In this document: piece after piece, positions 3,894 through 17,432 of the stretch
Layout of the letters: each line of letters starts with the position of its first letter
How positions within the stretch are numbered: the first letter of the stretch is position 1
Source: a virus
Lineage: Duplodnaviria > Heunggongvirae > Uroviricota > Caudoviricetes
IMG/VR virus record: IMGVR_UViG_2700989535_000002
Length of the DNA stretch: 24,361 nucleotides
Reading direction: 5' to 3' (one strand)
Notes under the pieces: generated by a model
What the model saw: only the letters and a program-made list of their open reading frames with translations
Database searches by the model: none
Told to the model about the DNA's origin: nothing
Made by a program: the position numbers and the translations under genes

Positions 3894-4165
3894 GTATTCG
3901 TATTGAAATTGGCGAACGTTATGTCGTTACCAGTGACAGCTTTCAGTTTATTCTCCACGAGAAAAAGAGAGCGGAAAGCGGTAAAAACGCCGGTCAGGAA
4001 TGGCTGGCGGTGGTTGGTTATTACCCGAAATTAAGCCAGCTCGTTTCAGGCCTGATGCATCACGATATTCTGACCGGAAGCGCAAAGTCTTTTGCTGATT
4101 TAAACGTGCAGGTTGAGCAACTCAGCAAGCGTTGTTCAGAGGCTTTTGGCTCATATGGCCGTTAA
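3890..4165 (+). CDS. Small early protein (P2 orf83 position)
   Basis: 91-aa ORF coupled to neighbours; ends 11 nt inside A. Confidence 0.55.
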   Translation: MSIRIEIGERYVVTSDSFQFILHEKKRAESGKNAGQEWLAVVGYYPKLSQLVSGLMHHDILTGSAKSFADLNVQVEQLSKRCSEAFGSYGR

Positions 4166-6443
4166 AGCCTCCGGGCGTTTTGTCCCTCCGTCAGCATTTG
4201 CCGCAGGCACCGGTAAGGCGTTTACCGGTGCTTATGCATGGAACGCGCCACGCGAGGCTGTCGGGCGCGAAAGACCCCTTACACGTGATGAGATGCGTCA
4301 GGTGCAAGGTGTTTTATCCACGATTAACCGCCTGCCTTACTTTTTGCGCTCGCTGTTTACTTCACGCTATGACTACATCCGGCGCAATAAAAGCCCGGTG
4401 CACGGGTTTTATTTTCTCACATCCACTTTTCAGCGTCGTTTATGGCCGCGCATTGAGCGTGTGAATCAGCGCCATGAAATGAACACCGACGCGTCGTTGC
4501 TGTTTCTGGCAGAGCGTGACCATTATGCGCGTCTGCCGGGGATGAATGACAAGGAGCTGAAAAAGTTTGCCGCCCGTATCTCATCGCAGCTTTTCATGAT
4601 GTATGAGGAACTCTGCGATGCCTGGGTGGATGCGCATGGCGAAAAAGAATCGCTGTTTACGGATGAGGCGCAGGCTCACCTCTATGGTCATGTTGCTGGT
4701 GCTGCACGTGCTTTCAATATTTCCCCTCTCTACTGGAAAAAATACCGTAAAGGGCAGATGACCACGAGGCAGGCATATTCTGCCATTGCCCGTCTGTTTA
4801 ACGATGAGTGGTGGACCCATCAGCTTAAAGGCCAGCGTATGCGCTGGCATGAGGCGTTACTGATTGCTGTCGGGGAGGTCAATAAAGACCGTTCTCCTTA
4901 TGCCAGTAAACATGCCATTCGTGATGTGCGTGCACGCCGCCAGGCAAATCTGGAATTTCTTAAATCGTGTGATCTCGAAAACAGGGAAACCGGCGAGCGC
5001 ATCGACCTTATCAGTAAGGTGATGGGCAGTATTTCTAATCCTGAAATTCGCCGGATGGAGCTGATGAACACCATTGCCGGTATTGAGCGTTACGCCGCAG
5101 CAGAGGGTGATGTGGGGATGTTTATCACGCTGACCGCGCCGTCAAAGTATCACCCGACACGTCAGGTCAGAAAAGGCGAAAGTAAAACCGTCCAGCTAAA
5201 TCACGGCTGGAACGATGAGGCATTTAATCCAAAGGATGCGCAGCGTTATCTCTGCCGTATCTGGAGCCTGATGCGCACGGCATTCAAGGATAATGATTTA
5301 CAGGTCTACGGTTTGCGTGTCGTCGAGCCACACCACGACGGAACGCCGCACTGGCATATGATGCTTTTTTGTAATCCGCGCCAGCGTAACCAGATTATCG
5401 AAATCATGCGTCGCTATGCGCTCAAAGAGGATGGCGACGAAAGAGGAGCCGCGCGAAACCGTTTTCAGGCAAAACATCTTAACCGGGGCGGTGCTGCGGG
5501 ATATATCGCGAAATACATTTCAAAAAACATCGACGGCTATGCACTGGATGGTCAGCTCGATAACGACACCGGCAGGCCGCTGAAAGACACTGCAGCGGCT
5601 GTTAGCGCATGGGCGTCAACGTGGCGCATCCCGCAATTTAAAACGGTTGGCCTGCCGACAATGGGGGCTTACCGTGAACTACGCAAATTGCCGCGCGGCG
5701 TCAGCATTGCTGATGAGTTTGACGAGCGCGTCGAGGCTGCACGCGCCGCCGCAGACAGTGGTGATTTTGCGTTGTATATCAGCGCGCAGGGTGGGGCAAA
5801 TGTCCCGCGCGATTGTCAGACTGTCAGAGTCGCCCGTAGCCCGTCGGATGACGTTAACGAGTACGAGGAAGAAGTCGAGAGAGTGGTCGGCATTTACGCG
5901 CCGCATCTCGGCGCGCGTCATATTCATATCACCAGAACGACGGACTGGCGCATTGTGCCGAAAGTTCCGGTCGTTGAGCCTTTGACTTTAAAAAGCGGCA
6001 TCGCCGCGCCTCGGAGTCCTGTCAATAACTGTGGAAAGCTCACCGGCGGTAATACTTCGTTACCGGTTCCCACGCCTTCTGAGCACGCCGCAGCAGTGCT
6101 TAATCTGGTTGATGACGGTGTTATCGAATGGAATGACCCGGAGGTCGTGAGGACGCTCAGGGGTGCATTAAAACACGGACTGAGAAGACCAAACCGTCAG
6201 CAAAGAAACGGAAGCCCGTTAAAACCACATGAAATTGCGCCATCGGCCAGACTGACCCGGTCGGAACGAATGCAAATCACCCGTATCCGCGTTGACCTTG
6301 CTCAGAACGGTATCAGGCCGCAGCGATGGGAGCTTGAGGCGCTGGCGCGTGGGGCAACCGTAAATTATGGCGGAAAAAAATTCACGTATCTGGTTGCTAA
6401 TGAGTGGTTCGGGTTTCAAGATGACGTGTCATTTTTCATATAA
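4155..6443 (+). CDS. A: Replication initiation endonuclease A (rolling-circle initiator)
   Basis: 762 aa from ATG at 4155 (track ORF begins at 4113). Large last gene of the early operon, same position and nearly same size as P2 A. Contains HxH-like GTPHWHMM and tyrosine-rich GYIAKYISKN segments typical of rolling-circle initiators. Confidence 0.85.
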   Translation: MAVKASGRFVPPSAFAAGTGKAFTGAYAWNAPREAVGRERPLTRDEMRQVQGVLSTINRLPYFLRSLFTSRYDYIRRNKSPVHGFYFLTSTFQRRLWPRIERVNQRHEMNTDASLLFLAERDHYARLPGMNDKELKKFAARISSQLFMMYEELCDAWVDAHGEKESLFTDEAQAHLYGHVAGAARAFNISPLYWKKYRKGQMTTRQAYSAIARLFNDEWWTHQLKGQRMRWHEALLIAVGEVNKDRSPYASKHAIRDVRARRQANLEFLKSCDLENRETGERIDLISKVMGSISNPEIRRMELMNTIAGIERYAAAEGDVGMFITLTAPSKYHPTRQVRKGESKTVQLNHGWNDEAFNPKDAQRYLCRIWSLMRTAFKDNDLQVYGLRVVEPHHDGTPHWHMMLFCNPRQRNQIIEIMRRYALKEDGDERGAARNRFQAKHLNRGGAAGYIAKYISKNIDGYALDGQLDNDTGRPLKDTAAAVSAWASTWRIPQFKTVGLPTMGAYRELRKLPRGVSIADEFDERVEAARAAADSGDFALYISAQGGANVPRDCQTVRVARSPSDDVNEYEEEVERVVGIYAPHLGARHIHITRTTDWRIVPKVPVVEPLTLKSGIAAPRSPVNNCGKLTGGNTSLPVPTPSEHAAAVLNLVDDGVIEWNDPEVVRTLRGALKHGLRRPNRQQRNGSPLKPHEIAPSARLTRSERMQITRIRVDLAQNGIRPQRWELEALARGATVNYGGKKFTYLVANEWFGFQDDVSFFI

Positions 6444-6619
6444 AACATTTCAAAATTCAATGTAATGAAAGCATATCGTATATCGCTTTAATATGTGTTA
6501 TTCTTCTTGGTTGTTAATGTTTGATTTTATATGAAAAAATATTATATATAGAAAGATCAAATACAACGGTTTACTTGTTATGATGCAATTATTGGTTAGT
6601 TAGTGAGATACATCGCCAT

Positions 6620-6860
6620 CAATTGGGTATTTTTTACCCGTGGAAAGTTAACACTTTCTACCGTTTACCCCGCGCAACGCCCCTGCCAGCGACAAGAGTC
6701 ACAGGACCAGGTGGTATGGCGTATGGGAATTCGAACCCTTTGGGCGACAAAGGGTTCGTGGAGCAGGGAGCTAGTGCTGTTCAATCTCATCCTTATGAGG
6801 GCGAACCATAGTGTTGGAGCAGACATACCGTTTGCACACTATGGGCATAAGGAGCAAATC
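6620..6860 (+). ncRNA. Candidate structured RNA / long 5' leader upstream of the RT operon (possible retron msr-msd)
   Basis: GC-richer than the flanking AT-rich spacer. Perfect hairpins: GAAAGT/ACTTTC (6643-6658), CGAACCCTTTG/CAAAGGGTTCG (6732-6758), and a composite stem CCTTATG..CCATAGTGT / ACACTATGG..CATAAGG (6791-6852) whose 3' arm overlaps the downstream SD. a1/a2 repeats not identified, so retron ncRNA identity is unproven. Confidence 0.3.
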
Positions 6861-7016
6861 ATGAAGAATGATAAATTAACCAACGAACAGCAGGCGCAGA
6901 ACAAGTCAAACCTGAAAAAGAGGGCTGGTTATGCTTGGGAATTATTCAAATGGGGTATTAGACTGTTTGATTTAGTCACTCGAGCACTGGGCTACTTAGA
7001 AGGGGGTGGTGAGTAA
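6861..7016 (+). CDS. Small 51-aa protein of unknown function
   Basis: ATG at 6861 with strong SD AAGGAG 6 nt upstream; polar N-terminus, amphipathic C-terminus (AGYAWELFKWGIRLFDLVTRALGYL). The longer GTG-initiated track ORF (6603) is not supported. Confidence 0.4.
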   Translation: MKNDKLTNEQQAQNKSNLKKRAGYAWELFKWGIRLFDLVTRALGYLEGGGE

Positions 7017-7052
7017 TGCGTCCTCCCTAGTTTCAATAGCATGGAGTTGCCT

Positions 7053-7361
7053 ATGTTACATAAAGCCCTTCGTTTAATAAGGCAATACCATAAAGAATCA
7101 ATAGTTGAGTTATCTTCATCTTTAGGTATTCCAAAAGACAAAATAGTATCGCTTGAAAGCGGAGTTTGGTCACCGTCGATTGAAGTCTTAGAGCGTTACG
7201 CCTCCCATTTCGACATACCAGTATCCTCTTTAGTATTCTTTTCGGAATCATTAGGCACGCAAGGCCGTTTGTCTAAGCGATTGCGTTTAAATTTAGCCGG
7301 TAAAGTTCTGGATGTTCTGGAGTGGGTAAGTAATAAAAATGAAAAAACGGAAAAAGCTTAA
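7053..7361 (+). CDS. XRE-family helix-turn-helix DNA-binding protein
   Basis: 102 aa from ATG at 7053 (GGAG 6 nt upstream). HTH_3-like segment LSSSLGIPKDKIVSLESGVWSPSIEVLERYASHFDIP. Its 3' end overlaps the RT start by 23 nt. Confidence 0.6.
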   Translation: MLHKALRLIRQYHKESIVELSSSLGIPKDKIVSLESGVWSPSIEVLERYASHFDIPVSSLVFFSESLGTQGRLSKRLRLNLAGKVLDVLEWVSNKNEKTEKA

Positions 7362-8289
7362 GGTTAATACTAAAAATAAATCTTATGACATAATGGATTC
7401 GCCATTTTACAAACTCAAAAGTAAAAGAAAACTGGCGAATTTGCTTTGTGTTAGTCTTGAAGAATTATACTCTTTGAGAAAAGATGAAGGAAACTATTCC
7501 GTTTTTGAGCAACTTTCTAAAAAAGGAAAAGCACGAAAAATACAAAAGCCTTTAGAAAAACTAGAACTTGTACATACACGAATTGCAAGTTTGTTATCAC
7601 GGATTGCTTTGCCAGAATATCTGCACTCGGGGAAGAAGAAGTGCTCTAATGTGACGAATGCTAAAGCTCATCTTAATAATGAAAAGATGATGACAACAGA
7701 TATTAAAGCTTTTTTTCCATCAACTACAAGAGGGATGATATTTTCTTTTTTCTTTTCGGTGATGAAAATGTCATCTGATGTTGCTGATGTTTTGTCCCAC
7801 ATATGTACTTGTCATGACCGATTACCAACAGGTAGTCGCATCAGTATGCCGTTGGCATATTTTGCAAATTCAAGAATGTTTGGTGAAATATATCAACTTT
7901 GCCAAAAGTTACGAGTTAACATGACTGTTTATGTTGATGATCTCACTTTTTCAGGTGGTAACGTAAATCGATTGTTTTGCGCTGTAATTCGTAAGATCGT
8001 TAATAAGCATGGACATGTTATACACCCAACGAAAACAAAATTATATGCCAGAGATAAGCCTAAGTTGGTAACTGGAGTTATTGTATTCGGTAATGCTTTA
8101 AAAGTTAGGAATGAGCAGCATTTTTTGATGGCTAGGGAAATAGATTATTGGAAAATAATTAAAGACGCCGAAAATGCGAGAGAAACAATCATTGCCAAAA
8201 AGCTCTTTGGCCGTTTGCATTCAATGGGAGTGATTGAGCAACGTTACAAATCGAAGGTGCTTACTTTAAAGGCTAATACTGCAAATTAA
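7339..8289 (+). CDS. Reverse transcriptase, retron-type
   Basis: 316 aa. NAKAH (NAxxH), TDIKAFFPS, LPTGSRISMPLAYFAN, YVDDLTFS (YxDD catalytic motif) and LVTGVIV (VTG) align motif-by-motif with retron RTs such as Ec86 as recalled. Alternative start at 7393 possible. Confidence 0.8.
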   Translation: MKKRKKLKVNTKNKSYDIMDSPFYKLKSKRKLANLLCVSLEELYSLRKDEGNYSVFEQLSKKGKARKIQKPLEKLELVHTRIASLLSRIALPEYLHSGKKKCSNVTNAKAHLNNEKMMTTDIKAFFPSTTRGMIFSFFFSVMKMSSDVADVLSHICTCHDRLPTGSRISMPLAYFANSRMFGEIYQLCQKLRVNMTVYVDDLTFSGGNVNRLFCAVIRKIVNKHGHVIHPTKTKLYARDKPKLVTGVIVFGNALKVRNEQHFLMAREIDYWKIIKDAENARETIIAKKLFGRLHSMGVIEQRYKSKVLTLKANTAN

Positions 8290-8412
8290 CATATTGAATG
8301 TATTGCATAAAAGCATCAATAATTAAAATGACTTGGCGTTAGTAACGCCGCAAGTGCAGGAATTTACTTTCGATGCAGGCGGTGTTGATTAGAAACCTCA
8401 GAAAGTAGTTAG

Positions 8413-8850
8413 CTATGAAGCTGACGTCACAAAATTAACGCCAAGAGTCAACAGGTTTGTCACTGCTCCAGCAATTACACCTGGAGTTCCGTCTTTTACT
8501 GCACTGATAATTTTATCACCCATCGTTTCATTACCGCCAAGTGCTTCGGGTTTTTTGTTGAGCACCGCGAGTGCTTTCTCGGTCAGGCGCACATCATGAA
8601 AACCGGTCTGATGGTCTGTTCCGTACAGAATATAGCCGTTTTCGCTTAGGAAAGTGAATGTGCCATCAACCACACTACGCAACTGATTCAGTGCTTTCAT
8701 TTCTGGTGAGTTAAGTTGGTCAAAGTAGTCATCAGGTAACGCGGCGTTAAATTTTTTGTAGGTGATGACTTGTGGTACAGGAAAGTTATCCCATAGCACC
8801 GCAAAGATTTCTGCCGTCTGTTGGTTGAATAATTCGAGATTTTTGGACAT
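8413..8850 (-). CDS. Hypothetical tail-anchored membrane protein (145 aa)
   Basis: Minus-strand ORF with SD AGGGA 7 nt upstream of ATG; soluble N-terminal ~115 aa and C-terminal hydrophobic helix (GTPGVIAGAVTNLLTLGVNFV). Convergent with the RT operon. Confidence 0.6.
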   Translation of the reverse strand: MSKNLELFNQQTAEIFAVLWDNFPVPQVITYKKFNAALPDDYFDQLNSPEMKALNQLRSVVDGTFTFLSENGYILYGTDHQTGFHDVRLTEKALAVLNKKPEALGGNETMGDKIISAVKDGTPGVIAGAVTNLLTLGVNFVTSAS

Positions 8851-9181
8851 GCATAGTTCCCTTTCATCAATTAAAGACCCTTATGCCGACTGGGCAAAGA
8901 GGCTAACTGTAATGGCCTCAAATAACGACCTGAGCTCTCGCGAGGTGGACAGTTACACTGAAAAAATGGTTGAACAAGCCAGTAAAGATGAGCTTATGGT
9001 CGTTATAAAATACCTGTTAAATCACATCAGAATGAATAAATAAAATGATCTATATCAAGATGTTATCTCACATTTATGAAAGTCCGTGGACAACGATTTT
9101 TCTGCTAATTGTTGTCAGTACGTGCCTCAACAGTGTGATTGGTGCATTGCGCGGCCAGTGACAACTATAAAAATTGATCAG

Positions 9182-9210
9182 AACCGGCATCATGAATGCC
9201 GGTTTTTTTG
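9182..9210 (+). terminator. Intrinsic terminator-like hairpin
   Basis: AACCGGCAT / ATGCCGGTT 9-bp perfect stem, 5-nt loop, followed by a 7-T run. Confidence 0.5.
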
Positions 9211-9367
9211 TGCTTTTTCTGTGATATCCCCGTTTTTATCTGTGCATGCAATATGTGCATGGTTTTGCATGTGCCGGAGTTACATGTTCTGGCCGTGCGT
9301 CCGCCAAGACTGGCGTGGCTCAAAAGCGGTATTGCAACTGCATTAAAACCGCCCCATGAAGCGGGCG

Positions 9368-9386
9368 GGCGAGGCGGGGAGAGCAT
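9368..9386. other. Candidate cos (cohesive end) site
   Basis: GGCGAGGCGGGGAGAGCAT matches the P2 19-nt cohesive end as recalled (GGCGAGGCGGGGAAAGCAC) at 17 of 19 positions; sits between A and Q as expected. Confidence 0.45.
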
Positions 9387-9461
9387 TGCCCGCATCCGTT
9401 GTTTTATGTTATTACTACATTGTTAAATTGGATGATTCTTATTTCTTGTGAGGAAGCTGTT

Positions 9462-10730
9462 ATGGCATTGATTGAAGGATTTCGAATATCAAATTTCAGG
9501 TCTCTGAAGAACGTTACGTTAGGAAAAACTTGGAACGATAGAACAAAGAAACCATTGACACCACTTACGGTTGTTATTGGGCGTAATGGTTCTGGAAAAA
9601 GTTCGCTTTTTGATGCATTTGGTTTCTTGGCTGATGCCCTTACCTATGGGGTAGAAGAAGCATGTCATAAGAATGGTCGCGGTGGCTTCGAACGCTTACG
9701 GTCTGCAGGGAGTAGTGAGGATATTGAATTCGAGATTTACTATAGAGAATCACCAAAAGACCGTCCAATCACATATGAATTGTCAATTGGCATTGATGCT
9801 ACTGGAAGACCTATAGTTAAGAAAGAAAGGTTGCGTCAGCGCAGGAGAGGTCAAAATAGAGGGTGGCCTTTCTCTTTTCTTGAATTATACAATGGAGTAG
9901 GAAAGGTTTGGTCAGGGGAATCTTTGTCAGAAAAAAATGAAGAGCATGGCAATATTGATGTTTTGTTAAGTGAAGAGTCTAATGGAACTATGCCAATCGA
10001 GCTAAGCAATACTCAAATGCTTGGTATTGCTACTTTAGGCAACTTGAAAGAGCATCCGAGAATAGCCAGATTCAGAAAATTTATTGAAGGCTGGTATCTT
10101 TCTTATTTTACTCCTGATGCTGCAAGAGATTTGCCTCGAGTTGGCCCGCAGAAACATCTAAATAGAATAGGTGATAACTTAGGCAATTTTGTTCAGTATA
10201 TGGAAAGAGAACATCCCAAAAAATTTAGACAGGTTCTTGAGGATATAGCCCTGAAGATTCCAGGAATTATAAAGATAGATACAGAAGCATCACCTGATGG
10301 AAGATTGCTTTTAAGGTTTTTTAACAAGGGTTTTGATAAACCATTTTATGCTCAACAAATATCTGATGGAACATTAAAACTGTTTGCTTACATGCTTCTC
10401 TTGGAAGATCCTGACCCTGCACCGTTTGTATGTATAGAGGAGCCAGAGAACGGCCTGTATCATAAATTATTACAATCTCTTGCAGAGGAATTTAGGAGCC
10501 ACGCTACAGGTAAGAAAGGTGATTCTCAGTTGTTTGTAACTACTCATCAACCATATTTTGTGGATGCACTCAATCCAGAGGAAGTATGGATATTAGAAAA
10601 AGAATCAGATGGCTTTTCCGTGCTGAGTAGAGCATCTGACTATCCTGATGTGATGGCAATGTATGAACAAGGATTGCCGTTAGGAAGTTTATGGTACAGT
10701 GATCACATTGATAGCAAGGAATTTGACTGA
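9462..10730 (+). CDS. ABC-type / AAA_21-like ATPase (OLD/AriA/AbiLi-like)
   Basis: 422 aa from ATG at 9462 (GAGGAAG SD; the track start at 9399 is TTG). N-terminal FRISNFRSL ... VVIGRNGSGKSSLFDAF (Walker A); C-terminal FVCIEEPENGLYH (Walker B/D-loop) and FVTTHQPYF (H-loop). Confidence 0.85.
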   Translation: MALIEGFRISNFRSLKNVTLGKTWNDRTKKPLTPLTVVIGRNGSGKSSLFDAFGFLADALTYGVEEACHKNGRGGFERLRSAGSSEDIEFEIYYRESPKDRPITYELSIGIDATGRPIVKKERLRQRRRGQNRGWPFSFLELYNGVGKVWSGESLSEKNEEHGNIDVLLSEESNGTMPIELSNTQMLGIATLGNLKEHPRIARFRKFIEGWYLSYFTPDAARDLPRVGPQKHLNRIGDNLGNFVQYMEREHPKKFRQVLEDIALKIPGIIKIDTEASPDGRLLLRFFNKGFDKPFYAQQISDGTLKLFAYMLLLEDPDPAPFVCIEEPENGLYHKLLQSLAEEFRSHATGKKGDSQLFVTTHQPYFVDALNPEEVWILEKESDGFSVLSRASDYPDVMAMYEQGLPLGSLWYSDHIDSKEFD

Positions 10731-11362
10731 TGCATTATGAGATCTTAGTCGAGGGACAATGTGAACTAACTGCTCTTTCAATTCTATTACCTAAGATTAT
10801 TGGAGAGTATAATAATCCACATACTTGGAAAATACATAAACATAGAGGTAATGGTTCTATTCCTGATAACCCAGCATTAGCTCCAAAAATTTCAGATACT
10901 TCACTCTTGGGGCAATTGCCTGCAAAATTAAGGGCTTACTCCAATAATCCAGACCCTAATAGAAAAGTGATTGTATTATTAGATCTAGATGATAAAGATC
11001 GAGAATCGTTCCATACGGCTCTAATTGACTTGTTAAAATATTGTTCGAATCCGTTTGATGTGTCATTTCCTTTTGCAGAAGAGGAATTAGAAGCATGGTA
11101 CCTTGGTGATAGACAAGCATTGATAGCTTACAATGCAAAAATCAATATGACAAAACTAAATGGCTATATTCAAGACTCAATATGTGATACATGGCGTTTT
11201 TTATTAGAGGCTGATGAGCCTTCACTGTTAAAACTGAAAAAGAAAGATAAAAGACTGCTTGAAAAGAAAGTTTTCTGGGCTAAAAAAATTACTCCTCATA
11301 TGGATGTTGATAGGAATTTATCGCCTAGTTTTAATAGTTTTAAAGAATGTTTGCATAATTAA
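10730..11362 (+). CDS. TOPRIM-like small protein (DUF4276/DUF4435-style) partnered with the ATPase
   Basis: 210 aa; start overlaps the ATPase stop (TGATG). N-terminal ILVEGQCE and VIVLLDLDD (DxD) resemble TOPRIM/OLD-family nuclease motifs; EEELEAWYLGD downstream. Confidence 0.6.
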   Translation: MHYEILVEGQCELTALSILLPKIIGEYNNPHTWKIHKHRGNGSIPDNPALAPKISDTSLLGQLPAKLRAYSNNPDPNRKVIVLLDLDDKDRESFHTALIDLLKYCSNPFDVSFPFAEEELEAWYLGDRQALIAYNAKINMTKLNGYIQDSICDTWRFLLEADEPSLLKLKKKDKRLLEKKVFWAKKITPHMDVDRNLSPSFNSFKECLHN

Positions 11363-11368
11363 ATGAGA

Positions 11369-11395
11369 GGCCACCTCCTTAGGAGGTGGTTTTTC
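11369..11395 (+). terminator. Rho-independent terminator of the ATPase/TOPRIM operon
   Basis: CCACCTCC / GGAGGTGG stem with 3-nt loop followed by TTTTT, 8 nt after the stop codon. Confidence 0.7.
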
Positions 11396-11697
11396 ATAAT
11401 CTACTGTTCATATGAAGCTACAATGATATTTTGATTTCTATTCTAGGATTTTTACTTTGCCGTTCAGATGCGCGATTAATTTTTTTTGATACTTGCATGC
11501 ATTTGATAATTACCTCGTTTACATCTATTGAATTAACAAATTGCTATGTTGTTCAAAAATTATTTTGTCATAACTTCTTCTTGATGTAGATAATCAAGGG
11601 TGGATGCTGATTATACTGTTATAATTATTAATTACATGAGATATTGTGATTTTGGCTAATGCAATTGCGACGAGAAAAATAATCAAGATAATAATGA

Positions 11698-11716
11698 GGC
11701 CATCTTATTGATGGCC
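11698..11716 (-). terminator. Possible terminator downstream of Q
   Basis: GGCCATC / GATGGCC stem (5-nt loop) about 15 nt beyond the Q stop on the minus strand, followed by a T-rich stretch; weaker than the other two. Confidence 0.3.
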
Positions 11717-11730
11717 CTTGAAAGCTAATA

Positions 11731-12753
11731 TCAGTCAAAATGATAAGGCTTGAACTTAATGACTTCCTTTTCTAACCAGTTATTGAGTTCGGCAATACGA
11801 GTCTGGAGTGGGATAAGTTCATTGCGGACAAAGACCTTTGCCACTTTCTCAATATCACCCAGTGACCCGACGTTCTCCGGCTTGCCGCCCATCAACTGAA
11901 AAGGAATGCGGTGCGCGTCCAGCAGGTCAGCGGCGCTGGCTTTTTTGATATTAAAAAAATCGTCCTTCGTTGCCACTTCACTGAGCGGGATAATTTTAAT
12001 GCCGTCGGCTTTTCCCTGCGGGGCATAGAGAAACAGATTTTTAAAGTTGTTGCGGCCTTTCGACTTGACCATGTTTTCGCGAAGCATTTCGATATCGTTG
12101 CGATCCTGCACGGCATCAGTGACGTACATGATGTATCCGGCATGTGCGCCGTTTTCGTAATACTTGCGGCGGAACAGCGTGGCTGACTCATTCAGCCAGG
12201 CAGAGTTAAGGGCGCTGAGATATTCCGGCAGGCCGTACAGCTCCTGATTAATATCCGGCTCCAGCAGATGAAACACGGAGCCGGGCGCGAAAGGTGTCGG
12301 CTCGTTGAAGGACGGCACCCACCAGTAAACATCCTCCTCCACGCCACGGCGGGTATATTTTGCCGGTGAGGTTTCCAGTCTGATGACCTTACCGGTGGTG
12401 CTGTAACGCTTTTCCAGAAATGCATTACCAAATACCAGAAAATCCAGCACAAAGCGGCTGAAATCCTGCTGGGAAAGCCATGGATGCGGGATAAATGTCG
12501 AGGCCAGAATATTACGTTTGACGTAAATCGGTGAGCTGTGATGCACGGCAGCACGCAGGCTTTTTGCCAGACCGGTAAAGCTGACCGGTGGCTCATACCA
12601 TCTGCCGTTACTGATGCACTCAACGTAATCCAGAATGTCACGGCGGTCGAGTACCGGCACCGGCTCACCAAAGGTGAATGCCTCCATTTTCGGGGCGCTG
12701 GCGGTCATTGTTTTTGCCGCAGGTTGCGGTGTTTTCCCTTTTTTCTTGCTCAT
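11731..12753 (-). CDS. Q: Portal protein
   Basis: 340-aa minus-strand ORF; first gene after the cos region, start overlapping the P stop; position and size as P2 Q. Confidence 0.85.
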   Translation of the reverse strand: MSKKKGKTPQPAAKTMTASAPKMEAFTFGEPVPVLDRRDILDYVECISNGRWYEPPVSFTGLAKSLRAAVHHSSPIYVKRNILASTFIPHPWLSQQDFSRFVLDFLVFGNAFLEKRYSTTGKVIRLETSPAKYTRRGVEEDVYWWVPSFNEPTPFAPGSVFHLLEPDINQELYGLPEYLSALNSAWLNESATLFRRKYYENGAHAGYIMYVTDAVQDRNDIEMLRENMVKSKGRNNFKNLFLYAPQGKADGIKIIPLSEVATKDDFFNIKKASAADLLDAHRIPFQLMGGKPENVGSLGDIEKVAKVFVRNELIPLQTRIAELNNWLEKEVIKFKPYHFD

Positions 12754-14525
12754 CAGTAAAACTCCAGAATGGTGGATGTCAGCGGGGTGCTGATACCGGC
12801 GGTGAGTGGCTCATTTAACAGGGCGTGCATGGTCGCCCAGGCGAGGTCGGCATGGCTGGCTTCCTCGCTGCGGCTGGCCTCATAGGTGGCGCTGCGTCCG
12901 CTGCTGGTCATGGTCTTGCGGATAGCCATGAACGAGCTGGTGATGTCGGTGGCGCTGACGTCATATTCCAGACAGCCACGGCGGATAACGTCTTTTGCCT
13001 TGAGCACCATTGCGGTTTTCATTTCCGGCGTGTAGCGGATATCGCGCGCGGCGGGATAGAACGAGCGCACGAGCTGGAACACGCCGACACCGAGGCCGGT
13101 GGCATCAATTCCGATGTATTCGACGTTGTATTTTTCGGTGAGTTTGCGGATGGATTCCGCCTGTGTGGCAAAGTCCATGCCTTTCCACTGGTGACGCTCA
13201 AGTATTCTGAATTTGCCACCGGCCACCACCGGCGGTGCCAGCACCACGCATCCGGCACTGTCGCCACGGTGTGACGGGTCGTAACCAATCCATACCGGAC
13301 GGGAGCCGAACGGATTGGCGGCAAAGGGTGCATAGTCTTCCCATTCTTCCAGCGTGTCGACCATGCAGCGTTGCAGCTCCTCGAACGGGAACACCGATGC
13401 CTTGTCGTCAACAAATTCACACATGAACAGGTTTTTAAAATCGTCGGCGCTGTTTTCGCGTTTGAGCTGCTCAATGTCGAACAGTGTGCAGCCTCCTTTC
13501 AGGGCATCCTCAATGGTGACAATCTGCCGCCACTGACCGTCCGCACAGAGAAGCCCACCGGCTAGGGCGTTATGACTGACGTCGATTTCCACACGTTCGG
13601 CGGCGCTGGCGCGTCCCCGGTTGAACAGTTCACCCGACCAGAACGGGTAGGCGTCGTGCGCCAGCGTGGACGGGGTGGAGAAATAGGTCGAGCGCAGGTG
13701 ACTCTGTGAGGCCATACCTGATGCCACCTTACGCAGTACCTGAAAATTCGGGATCCAGAAAATCTCGTCGACGTACAGGTCGCCGTTATGGCTCTGCGCG
13801 GTGTTGGAGTTGGTGCCGAGAAAAATCAGTTTTGCGCCGTTATTGCCCAGGACAATCGGGTCACCGGTCAGGTCAACGTCAACCAGACGGGCAAAGGCGA
13901 TGATGTATTCGCGGAACACATACGCCTGCGTTTTACTGGCTGACAGAAAAATCTGGTTATGACCGGTTTTCAGGGCGCGCAGCAGCGCCTCGCGGGAAAA
14001 ATAAAACGTCGCGCCAATCTGGCGGGATTTCAGGATATCGCGGATGCGGTGCTCAAGCCCGGCGCGATACCAGTGCAACTGATAGTCGAAAGACTGCTCA
14101 AAGAAAATCTGCCCCAGCTTTTCGATGGCCTCGTCACTGAAAAAATTCTTTTTCGGTTTGCGCCGCCCGCCTTTGTTGCGGTTAGCGACGTTCGGATTAA
14201 GGTCTGCCTCGTTGCCGGTCTGACTGTAACGGTTGACCCGTGCCAGTCGTTCAATCTGGCGTCCGAGCAGGTCAATTTCCTTGAAGTCACCGCCGGTTTT
14301 CTGCGGTTTGATGATGAGCTGGGTCAGCCGCGCTTCCAGACTCATTTCGACACGGCTGATGGGGGCAACGCTGTCCCAGCCGTCGCGCTGTTTCCAGCTC
14401 TGCACCGTCGGGCGTTTCATCTGCAACATGGCGGCAATCTGCGGCACGGAAAATCCCTGCCAGTACAGCAGCGCCGCCTGACGACGCGGGTCGTGTAAAA
14501 GAGTGGTGTCTGTGGTGATGGTCAT
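12753..14525 (-). CDS. P: Terminase large (ATPase) subunit
   Basis: 590 aa from ATG at 14525 (track ORF extends to 14555); same size and position as P2 P. Confidence 0.85.
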   Translation of the reverse strand: MTITTDTTLLHDPRRQAALLYWQGFSVPQIAAMLQMKRPTVQSWKQRDGWDSVAPISRVEMSLEARLTQLIIKPQKTGGDFKEIDLLGRQIERLARVNRYSQTGNEADLNPNVANRNKGGRRKPKKNFFSDEAIEKLGQIFFEQSFDYQLHWYRAGLEHRIRDILKSRQIGATFYFSREALLRALKTGHNQIFLSASKTQAYVFREYIIAFARLVDVDLTGDPIVLGNNGAKLIFLGTNSNTAQSHNGDLYVDEIFWIPNFQVLRKVASGMASQSHLRSTYFSTPSTLAHDAYPFWSGELFNRGRASAAERVEIDVSHNALAGGLLCADGQWRQIVTIEDALKGGCTLFDIEQLKRENSADDFKNLFMCEFVDDKASVFPFEELQRCMVDTLEEWEDYAPFAANPFGSRPVWIGYDPSHRGDSAGCVVLAPPVVAGGKFRILERHQWKGMDFATQAESIRKLTEKYNVEYIGIDATGLGVGVFQLVRSFYPAARDIRYTPEMKTAMVLKAKDVIRRGCLEYDVSATDITSSFMAIRKTMTSSGRSATYEASRSEEASHADLAWATMHALLNEPLTAGISTPLTSTILEFY

Positions 14526-16688: not shown

Positions 16689-17432
16689 ATGACGAGTCCC
16701 GCACAGCGCCACATGATGCGGGTCTCGGCAGCGATGACCGCGCAGCGGGAAGCCGCCCCGCTGCGACATGCAACTGTCTATGAGCAGATGCTGGTCAAGC
16801 TGGCCGCAGACCAGCGCACACTGAAAGCAATTTATTCAAAAGAGCTGAAGGCCGCGAAAAAGCGCGAACTGCTGCCGTTCTGGTTGCCGTGGGTGAACGG
16901 CGTGCTGGAGCAGGGCAAAGGTGCACAGGATGACATTCTGATGACAGTCATGCTGTGGCGTCTGGATACCGGCGATATTGCCGGTGCGCTGGAGATTGCC
17001 CGTTATGCCCTGAAGTACGGTCTGACCATGCCGGGTAAACACCGCCGCACCCCGCCGTACATGTTCACCGAGGAAGTGGCGCTTGCGGCCATGCGCGCTC
17101 ACGCTGCCGGTGAGTCTGTGGATCCCCGCCTGCTGATGGACACCCTCGAACTGACCGCCACGGCTGACATGCCTGATGAAGTGCGCGCAAAGCTGCACAA
17201 AATCACCGGTCTGTTTCTGCGTGACGCTGGTGATGCCGCCGGTGCGCTGGCTCACCTGCAACGTGCGACACAGCTCGACTGTCAGGCAGGCGTCAAAAAA
17301 GAGATTGAACGACTGGAGCGGGAGCTGAAACCGAAGCCGGAGCCGCAGCCCAAAGCGGCCACCCGCGCCCCGCGTAAGACCCGGAGCGTGACACCGGCAA
17401 AACGTGGACGCCCGAAAAAGAAAGCCAGTTAA
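16689..17432 (+). CDS. M: Terminase small / endonuclease subunit
   Basis: 247-aa ORF with basic C-terminal tail; size and position as P2 M. Confidence 0.85.
   Translation: MTSPAQRHMMRVSAAMTAQREAAPLRHATVYEQMLVKLAADQRTLKAIYSKELKAAKKRELLPFWLPWVNGVLEQGKGAQDDILMTVMLWRLDTGDIAGALEIARYALKYGLTMPGKHRRTPPYMFTEEVALAAMRAHAAGESVDPRLLMDTLELTATADMPDEVRAKLHKITGLFLRDAGDAAGALAHLQRATQLDCQAGVKKEIERLERELKPKPEPQPKAATRAPRKTRSVTPAKRGRPKKKAS

Follow-up and report, generated by a model that had tools for sequence, protein, structure and literature searches.

A predicted packaging site probably divides the gpA–gpQ accessory region of a P2-type Escherichia coli prophage into two cargo slots

The interval between gpA and gpQ has been published as the 'cos-proximal' P2 defence hotspot (Rousset et al. 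2022, PMC9122126; also PMC13586616), and retrons are among its listed contents (PMC9122126). The concept of a slot on the Q side of cos is also already in the literature, where it has been described since 1996/1999. According to PMC6868368, which cites Dodd & Egan 1996, the retrons Ec86 and Ec67 stand in place of a stretch of ~180 bp that runs from cos to the packaging-gene terminator; the content of that article (Virology 219:115) is followed here as it is reported in PMC6868368, PMC7826664 and PMC5694545. PMC5694545 cites Nakayama 1999 for the location of ctx between cosL and Q in phiCTX, and ORF1–4 of the Ralstonia phage phiRSY1 are a further case of cargo in this slot. In the phiCTX record (NC_003278), cosL occupies nt 1–21, ctx lies at 362–1222 with its own promoter and terminators, and Q follows at 1417–2469 on the opposite strand. 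In the record of satellite P4, the gop/beta/cII genes start at nt 247, directly past cosL. A 55-bp cos core was defined experimentally in 1990.

The window, by which we mean the whole stretch of 24,361 nucleotides analysed here, is a P2-type prophage with an integrase gene (583–1596) and a chromosomal flank (yegR, yegS, gatR and gatD) that is 100% identical to E. coli. The backbone genes relevant to the accessory region and to packaging are the following.

4155–6443, plus strand: gpA replication protein (Pfam Phage_GPA, E = 6e-123; gene call from the identical locus L165)
11731–12753, minus strand: gpQ portal (96% amino-acid identity to P2 Q)
12753–14525, minus strand: gpP large terminase, the expected cos cutter (Pfam Terminase_6N, Terminase_6C and Terminase_5)
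16689–17432, plus strand: gpM small terminase (Pfam Phage_term_smal, on the identical gene of L165 and in related loci)

In the loci identical to the window, gpP was called as a 590-aa gene. Beyond it, the backbone continues with head genes (including gpM), then lysis and then tail genes, inside which the window ends. On the right-end side, the cargo region is bounded by the core gene gpA: DNA homology to P2 amounts to 95% in A as far as 6417 and to 97.7% from 11810 onwards, and between these positions it is limited to 9339–9385. The GC content of the cargo is 30–45% on both sides, versus 52–58% in the phage core genes. The remnant of homology in the middle of this region comprises two nested features.

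9339–9393, plus strand: cos core, made up of 29 nt with a GC hairpin (9349–9368), the 19-nt cohesive end and 7 nt (TGCCCGC)
9368–9386, plus strand: cohesive-end 19-mer (unique match; alignment to the cos of P2 and 186)

The 19-mer, GGCGAGGCGGGGAGAGCAT, occurs once in the window, and even with three mismatches it finds no second match in the 24.4 kb, where shuffled sequences lead one to expect 0.01. Compared base for base, it matches 17 of the 19 nucleotides of the P2 cohesive end (GGCGAGGCGGGGAAAGCAC, 'cosL', NC_001895 nt 1–19) and equally 17/19 of that of 186 (GGCGTGGCGGGGAAAGCAT, 'cos', NC_001317 nt 1–19), and the alignment puts it at the position homologous to cos in P2, 186 and P4. With blastn, the match to the 186 right end reaches nt 30623 of the 30624-nt record (window 9366); the 186 record stops one base short of the 19-mer, so the start of the 19-mer corresponds to the start of the 186 virion map. 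Gene order (A, cos, Q, P ... M) and orientation are fixed, with the cognate terminase genes in cis, as in the surveyed loci. The 19-mer is thus predicted to be the sequence at which cos is cleaved in this P2-type (Peduovirus) E. coli prophage. From the 19-mer to the Q stop, the window has 2,344 bp, as compared with P2 (167 bp) and 186 (176 bp). Several statements of the initial annotation are borne out by these results, namely that the 19-mer occupies the P2 cos position, here within the core common to P2 and P4, that cargo genes lie to either side of it, that Q stands close behind cos in canonical P2, and that about 2.3 kb of cargo intervenes in this prophage.

What P2 and P4 have in common at cos is limited to 29 nt, the 19-mer and the 7 nt (T/C)GCGCGC, their 7-mers differing at the first base; their alignment diverges on either side of this 55-bp block, the boundaries of which correspond to window 9339–9393. 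The window is identical to P2 at 51 of these 55 positions, and the core was kept in all 142 surveyed loci in which cos was located. Position 14 of the window's 19-mer is a G, as against A or T in all 142 other cos sites surveyed, and its 7-mer is TGCCCGC versus the near-universal TGCGCGC, a variant unique in the survey. The hairpin of the core (9349–9368, CCGCCCC-ATGA-AGCGGGCGG) ends at the first base of the 19-mer and scores as a terminator because TTTTAATGCA follows on the minus strand; this conserved GC hairpin is kept in every surveyed P2-like locus and in P4.

On the gpA side of the core, which corresponds to the right end of the virion map, we found the following features.

6444–9338, no strand assigned: gpA-side cargo, corresponding to tin/old in P2 (retron VI, 145-aa gene and right-end leader)
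7041–7361, plus strand: HTH gene of a type VI retron (PADLOC HTH_VI, 7.7e-31)
7339–8289, plus strand: RT gene of a type VI retron (PADLOC RT_VI, 2.8e-105)
8413–8850, minus strand: 145-aa gene without significant Pfam or PADLOC match
9180–9206, plus strand: terminator-like hairpin ahead of cos, at the position of 186 t95b (terminator scan)

This cargo has a GC content of 33–45% and no homology to P2. The combination of an RT_VI gene with an HTH_VI accessory gene identifies a type VI retron at the level of its genes; an Rfam search of 6300–11900 (E ≤ 1) gave no match to a retron msr/msd ncRNA or to any RNA. An ORF of 137 aa (6603–7016) had no significant Pfam or PADLOC match, and the 145-aa gene always accompanies the retron in L165–L172. 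Towards cos, 9183–9366 and the 186 right end share 76% identity, homology beginning at the hairpin 9180–9206; t95b is annotated at 30436–30463 in 186.

The gpQ side, or left end of the virion map, has a different composition.

9394–11809, no strand assigned: gpQ-side cargo segment, replacing P2 nt ~27–277 (GC 30–42%)
9462–10730, plus strand: HEC-01A-type AAA_21/AAA_15 ATPase (PADLOC HEC-01A, 2.6e-190; Pfam AAA_21, 2.4e-41)
10730–11362, plus strand: HEC-01B-type DUF4276 protein (PADLOC HEC-01B, 7.5e-81; Pfam DUF4276, 5.1e-10)
11371–11389, plus strand: likely terminator of the HEC-01 operon (palindromic GC hairpin, then TTTTT)
11697–11717, minus strand: terminator-like hairpin just past the Q stop, replacing P2 tQ (terminator scan)

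Past TGCCCGC (9393), the homology that the window shares with P2, 186 and every surveyed phage comes to an end, and the whole segment 9394–11809 lacks homology to P2 or 186, foreign genes having replaced the canonical spacer of ~150 bp between cos and the portal gene. The ATG of the ATPase gene lies 75 bp past the 19-mer, with an RBS (GAGGAAG) at 9450–9456; its stop and the DUF4276 start overlap at 10730, and the two genes are translationally coupled. Adjacent HEC-01A (AAA_21 ATPase) and HEC-01B (DUF4276) genes are what PADLOC defines as HEC-01, which is a candidate system only, and the pair is presumed to be expressed and active in defence. The ATPase also matches PADLOC AriA (2.4e-39) and AbiLi (1.4e-31). 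PARIS was nevertheless rejected as an identity for the pair: the AriB partner (DUF4435 TOPRIM) is absent, with no DUF4435 or AriB match to the second gene in PADLOC or Pfam, and this gene matches only DUF4276/HEC-01B. The second product had initially been read as a TOPRIM protein and the pair described as upstream of Q; the first reading found no support in a permissive Pfam search, which gives DUF4276 only, and the second needs correction, the pair being convergent with Q and situated beyond its 3' end, on the downstream side.

A consensus scan detected no consensus sigma-70 promoter between cos and the ATPase start; by eye, a weak extended −10 candidate (TGtTAAATT) can be seen at ~9421–9429, which is not evidence for a promoter. 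The scan assigned the hairpin at 11371–11389 to the minus strand; its stem is a palindrome, with GGTGGTTTTTCAT on the plus strand. Between the HEC-01 and Q terminators, the ~300 bp of 11390–11696 (30% GC) gave no Rfam match and no ORF of more than 52 aa; one of its small ORFs is hydrophobic and 30 aa long (11594–11686, minus strand).

The distal junction lies 79 nt inside Q, where the last 26 codons (11731–11809) belong to the replaced segment and have no DNA homology to P2, the rest of Q being ~98% identical. The Q ORF is retained at 340 aa, and its tail (LQTRIAELNNWLEKEVIKFKPYHFD) is identical to that of P2 (LQDRIREINGWLGQEVIRFKNYSLDTDND) at 16/26 residues and four residues shorter. The cassette swap has therefore rewritten the C-terminus of an essential structural protein; P2 tQ (160–181) also falls inside the replaced P2 interval (~27–277). 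Its location in the 3' portion of Q makes this distal junction suggestive of recombination with a second genome of the P2 family, and the Q tail looks like the product of a crossover inside Q with a more distant member of the family. The Rahnella lineage was rejected as donor of the tail (1/26 identical), and none of ~160 loci was better than P2 itself or L077 (16–17/26). No DNA matches were obtained for 11363–11815, and blastn of 11340–11800 against phages gave none.

The exact ATPase product was called in 98 blocks of the assembly collection. Among the matches listed, 10/10 lie in P2-type prophages that occupy yegS/yegR and carry a cos variant and HEC-01 cassette identical to those of the window, a combination joined to three different gpA-side contents.

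Seven loci: retron VI and the 145-aa gene
L164: a DUF3850 gene and a 174-aa ORF
L168 and L173: almost empty

L165 (GCA_001420125.1, contig LIVJ01000002.1), one of the retron VI loci, is 100% identical to the window over 6300–12000. In L164, homology to the window starts at 9333 and five mismatches are clustered in the right half of the core, which places the crossover within the core. Given this crossover and the three gpA-side contents, the A-side and Q-side slots appear to assort independently, with the 19-mer/7-mer variant apparently travelling with the left-hand cassette. Head, terminase, lysis and early tail genes were called intact in the cassette loci, except L167. In L167 (13293–15065), the gene for the large terminase gpP was not called and may be a pseudogene, and in L169 (7593–8828), the retron HTH and RT were called as a single 411-aa fusion; some prophage copies may therefore be decaying.

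Relatives of the pair were found in other settings. A 186-like prophage of Rahnella bonaserana (L178) has a 77%-identical HEC-01 pair in the same cos–Q slot, arranged as follows.

4874–4892: cos, then TGCGCGC
5001–6883: HEC-01 pair
6990–7997: Q, opposite strand

Another HEC-01 homologue is present in a chromosomal Erwinia locus. The closest non-identical pair (90% identity; Klebsiella aerogenes, L176/L177, 4777–8198) is located between icd and the integrase of an unrelated (lambdoid-type) prophage, beside an IS1 fragment, a position indicating that the same cassette also occurs at the att-proximal cargo site of another phage type. The cassette was absent from 50,697 phage records, 5,426 complete E. 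coli genomes and IMG/VR: megablast with 9300–11850 hit nothing but the core of cos and the end of Q, and neither an exact search for the cos variant nor a protein-guided search of IMG/VR yielded a match. Consequently, no isolated virus is known to carry it. An origin of the cassette from a satellite was considered and set aside, no satellite copy having been recovered in the cos-variant and protein-guided searches.

We estimated the use of the Q-side slot by collecting loci encoding Q homologues and measuring the distance from the Q stop to cos.

IMG/VR, close P2 relatives (Q at least 96% identical), n = 80: <300 bp, 79 loci; 300–900 bp, 0; at least 900 bp, 1
GTDB, Enterobacterales species representatives, n = 62: <300 bp, 43 loci; 300–900 bp, 3; at least 900 bp, 16

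The canonical gaps of the IMG/VR set range from 79 to 177 bp (mode 169), and its sole long gap is 1,875 bp (L100). The long gaps of the GTDB set (16/62, 26%) measure 0.9–3.7 kb, and all 16 are among the 57 loci with a Q that is 69–82% identical to that of the window. Furthermore, P2 nt 1–330 are contiguous in 1,544 of the 1,714 complete E. coli genomes with any match to this stretch. On these counts, Q-side cargo is rare in the close P2 lineage and common in the wider P2 family. The earlier description of such cargo as unusual is therefore accurate for the close lineage (1/80 in IMG/VR) but does not extend to the P2-like prophages of the Enterobacterales species representatives (16/62).

The cargo of the Q-side slot is different in nearly every locus, diverse and often related to defence; it is mostly oriented from cos to Q, starting 16–85 bp past cos. 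A complete Lamassu system (LmuA/LmuC/LmuB) fills the 3.7-kb cos–Q slot of a Citrobacter P2-like prophage (L012, 11069–14681), and other slots hold an AbiL-like ATPase (L021), PDC-M11 (L023), an Avs5/SIR2-like protein (L044) or an NsnA-like protein (L100), with several carrying genes of no recognised identity. Such contents (Lamassu, Avs-like, AbiL-like and unknown genes) make this slot a further place to seek new defence systems. The gpA side of L012 measures only ~0.9 kb, and the Q-side slot is the main cargo site there. Half of the 16 long-gap loci (eight) have in addition 1.5 kb or more on the A side, where the remaining eight have little, so either slot, or both, can be filled.

Eleven loci, including the window, diverge directly past the 7-mer (TGCGCGC position), and seven keep the canonical left sequence, with the insertion closer to Q. 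Because natural replacements start right past the 7-mer in those eleven loci and in P4, these comparisons suggest that the terminase may need nothing past ~7 bp to the left of the cut, in agreement with the experimentally defined core. In two close P2 relatives from IMG/VR (L097 and L117), the cos–Q spacer is shortened to 79 and 92 bp, respectively, versus 169, and L097 diverges directly past TGCGCGC; these natural deletions suggest that the canonical left spacer may be dispensable. The contigs of three enterobacterial P2-like prophages (L005, L009 and L055) bear the names Bacillota MAG, Vagococcus sp. and Chryseobacterium sp., labels that most likely reflect contamination or mis-binning in the assemblies.

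We consider it very probable that the site is the phage's own cos, that its core splits the gpA–gpQ island into two slots, the contents of which would lie at opposite virion termini, and that the left-hand cassette was gained by replacement. A cos in the middle of the accessory region is accounted for by the permutation of the prophage map at attP. The P2-family terminase (gpM/gpP) would recognise the 55-bp core enclosing the 19-mer. The right-end slot, at the P2 tin/old position, would contain the type VI retron and the 145-aa gene, and the HEC-01-type operon would occupy the left-end slot that separates cos from the portal gene, starting 75 bp past the cut site and being transcribed towards Q. 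This cassette would have been acquired through the replacement of P2 nt ~27–277, with one junction at the edge of the 55-bp core and the other within the 3' end of Q. In packaged linear DNA, the right terminus would carry the retron and the left terminus the HEC-01 operon, and annealing of the cohesive ends would rejoin both cargo sets. The initial annotation had proposed this geometry if the 19-mer is cut, with the RT operon and the 145-aa gene at the right end and the ATPase pair at the far left end, and our results support it. Its further statement that the cargo 'shows' undisturbed packaging was too strong for the sequence of a prophage, from which this can be argued by precedent. Homology, junctions, gene identities and recurrence are established here, and on that basis cleavage at 9368–9386 and functional packaging are predicted. 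As phiCTX and P4 are packaged viruses, the compatibility of packaging with foreign DNA to the left of the core rests on established cases.

It is improbable, in our judgement, that the site is instead a decayed cos in a defective prophage, in which the Q-side replacement and two base changes inactivated packaging and only vertical inheritance remains. The G at position 14 and the TGCCCGC sequence, unique among 142 surveyed cos sites, would be expected of such decay, but position 14 is already A or T among functional family members, and the 7-mer of P4 differs at its first base. The presence of 10/10 of the listed loci at the same yegS/yegR site and the lack of a match in sequenced phages or IMG/VR could likewise reflect vertical inheritance, but the cassette-linked cos variant is found in three recombinant phage backbones. 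The failure to call gpP in L167 is set against structural and terminase genes that are intact in 9/10 listed loci, and phiCTX and P4 are packaged with foreign DNA at the same position.

Far less probable still is a cos that belongs to the cargo, having come with a cos-bearing element, such as a P4-like satellite fragment, inserted as one gpA–gpQ island; on this reading, the packaging site with cargo to either side would not really be that of the phage itself. The linkage between the cos variant and the HEC-01 cassette in 10/10 listed loci, together with the P4-like satellite hotspot directly to the left of cos, could be taken in this sense. However, the window has a single cos-like site, placed and oriented with respect to A and Q as is typical of the family and as seen in all 142 loci, and its right-hand flank (9183–9366) is homologous to 186-type right ends; the interval contains no P4 genes according to Pfam and PADLOC, and no satellite copy of the cassette was found. 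Even if the 19-mer and 7-mer had arrived with the cassette through a crossover within the core, they would now form the only cos of the phage.

A phage cos flanked by two slots does not overturn the current understanding. The new elements are modest: the frequency with which the Q-side slot is used, in about a quarter of diverse enterobacterial P2-like prophages, and the evidence for independent recombination of the two slots at the cos core. For annotation, the gpA–gpQ defence island should be seen as interrupted by the packaging site, its halves being separate modules, and the correct virion map is obtained when it is divided at the 55-bp core. We also put forward, as a tentative and rather doubtful generalisation, that the hotspot could consist of two independently assorting slots joined by the cos core as a portable crossover point, the Q-side slot being the positional homologue of the P4 hotspot; cassettes could then move between helper and satellite and between lineages, with the cos variant hitch-hiking.

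The window belongs to the published gpA–gpQ hotspot, with variable genes that include retron VI and HEC-01 matches. The hotspot studies (PMC9122126, PMC13586616) treat A–Q as one interval 'adjacent to the cos site' and do not give the side. P2 itself carries its entire cargo (orf91, tin, old) on the A side, whereas the window has cargo on both. The P4-like satellite hotspot (gop/beta/cII in P4; PARIS and others) resembles the window in having cargo directly past the 55-bp core on the cosL side, with a sequence that diverges right past (T/C)GCGCGC, but P4 is a satellite without a portal gene beside the slot, which in the window adjoins Q. PARIS also differs in its second gene, AriB being a DUF4435 protein and that of the window a DUF4276 protein, although the ATPase matches AriA.

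The Pseudomonas phage phiCTX shares with the window the order of cosL, an accessory gene oriented towards Q and a convergent portal gene. Both phiCTX and phiRSY1 are isolated phages. The genus is another one, the cohesive ends measure 21 nt, a toxin or Vgr-like gene takes the place of the defence pair, and cos and the gene are 340 bp apart in phiCTX versus 75 bp in the window. The 186-related E. coli prophages with Ec67 (Eco2) and Ec86 (Eco1), as far as they are described in the sources cited above, resemble the window in carrying defence cargo in the cos–portal slot, on the same side. Their slot holds a retron, whereas that of the window holds an ATPase and a DUF4276 gene and its retron is in the other slot, and their backbone is of the 186 type, that of the window being of the P2 type (Q 96% identical to P2). 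Ec67 and Ec86 replace ~180 bp up to the terminator, with a junction at the portal terminator that, according to the title of the original article, leaves the portal gene untouched; in the window, the junction lies 79 nt inside Q, so that the replacement also removes the terminator and rewrites the last 26 codons of Q.
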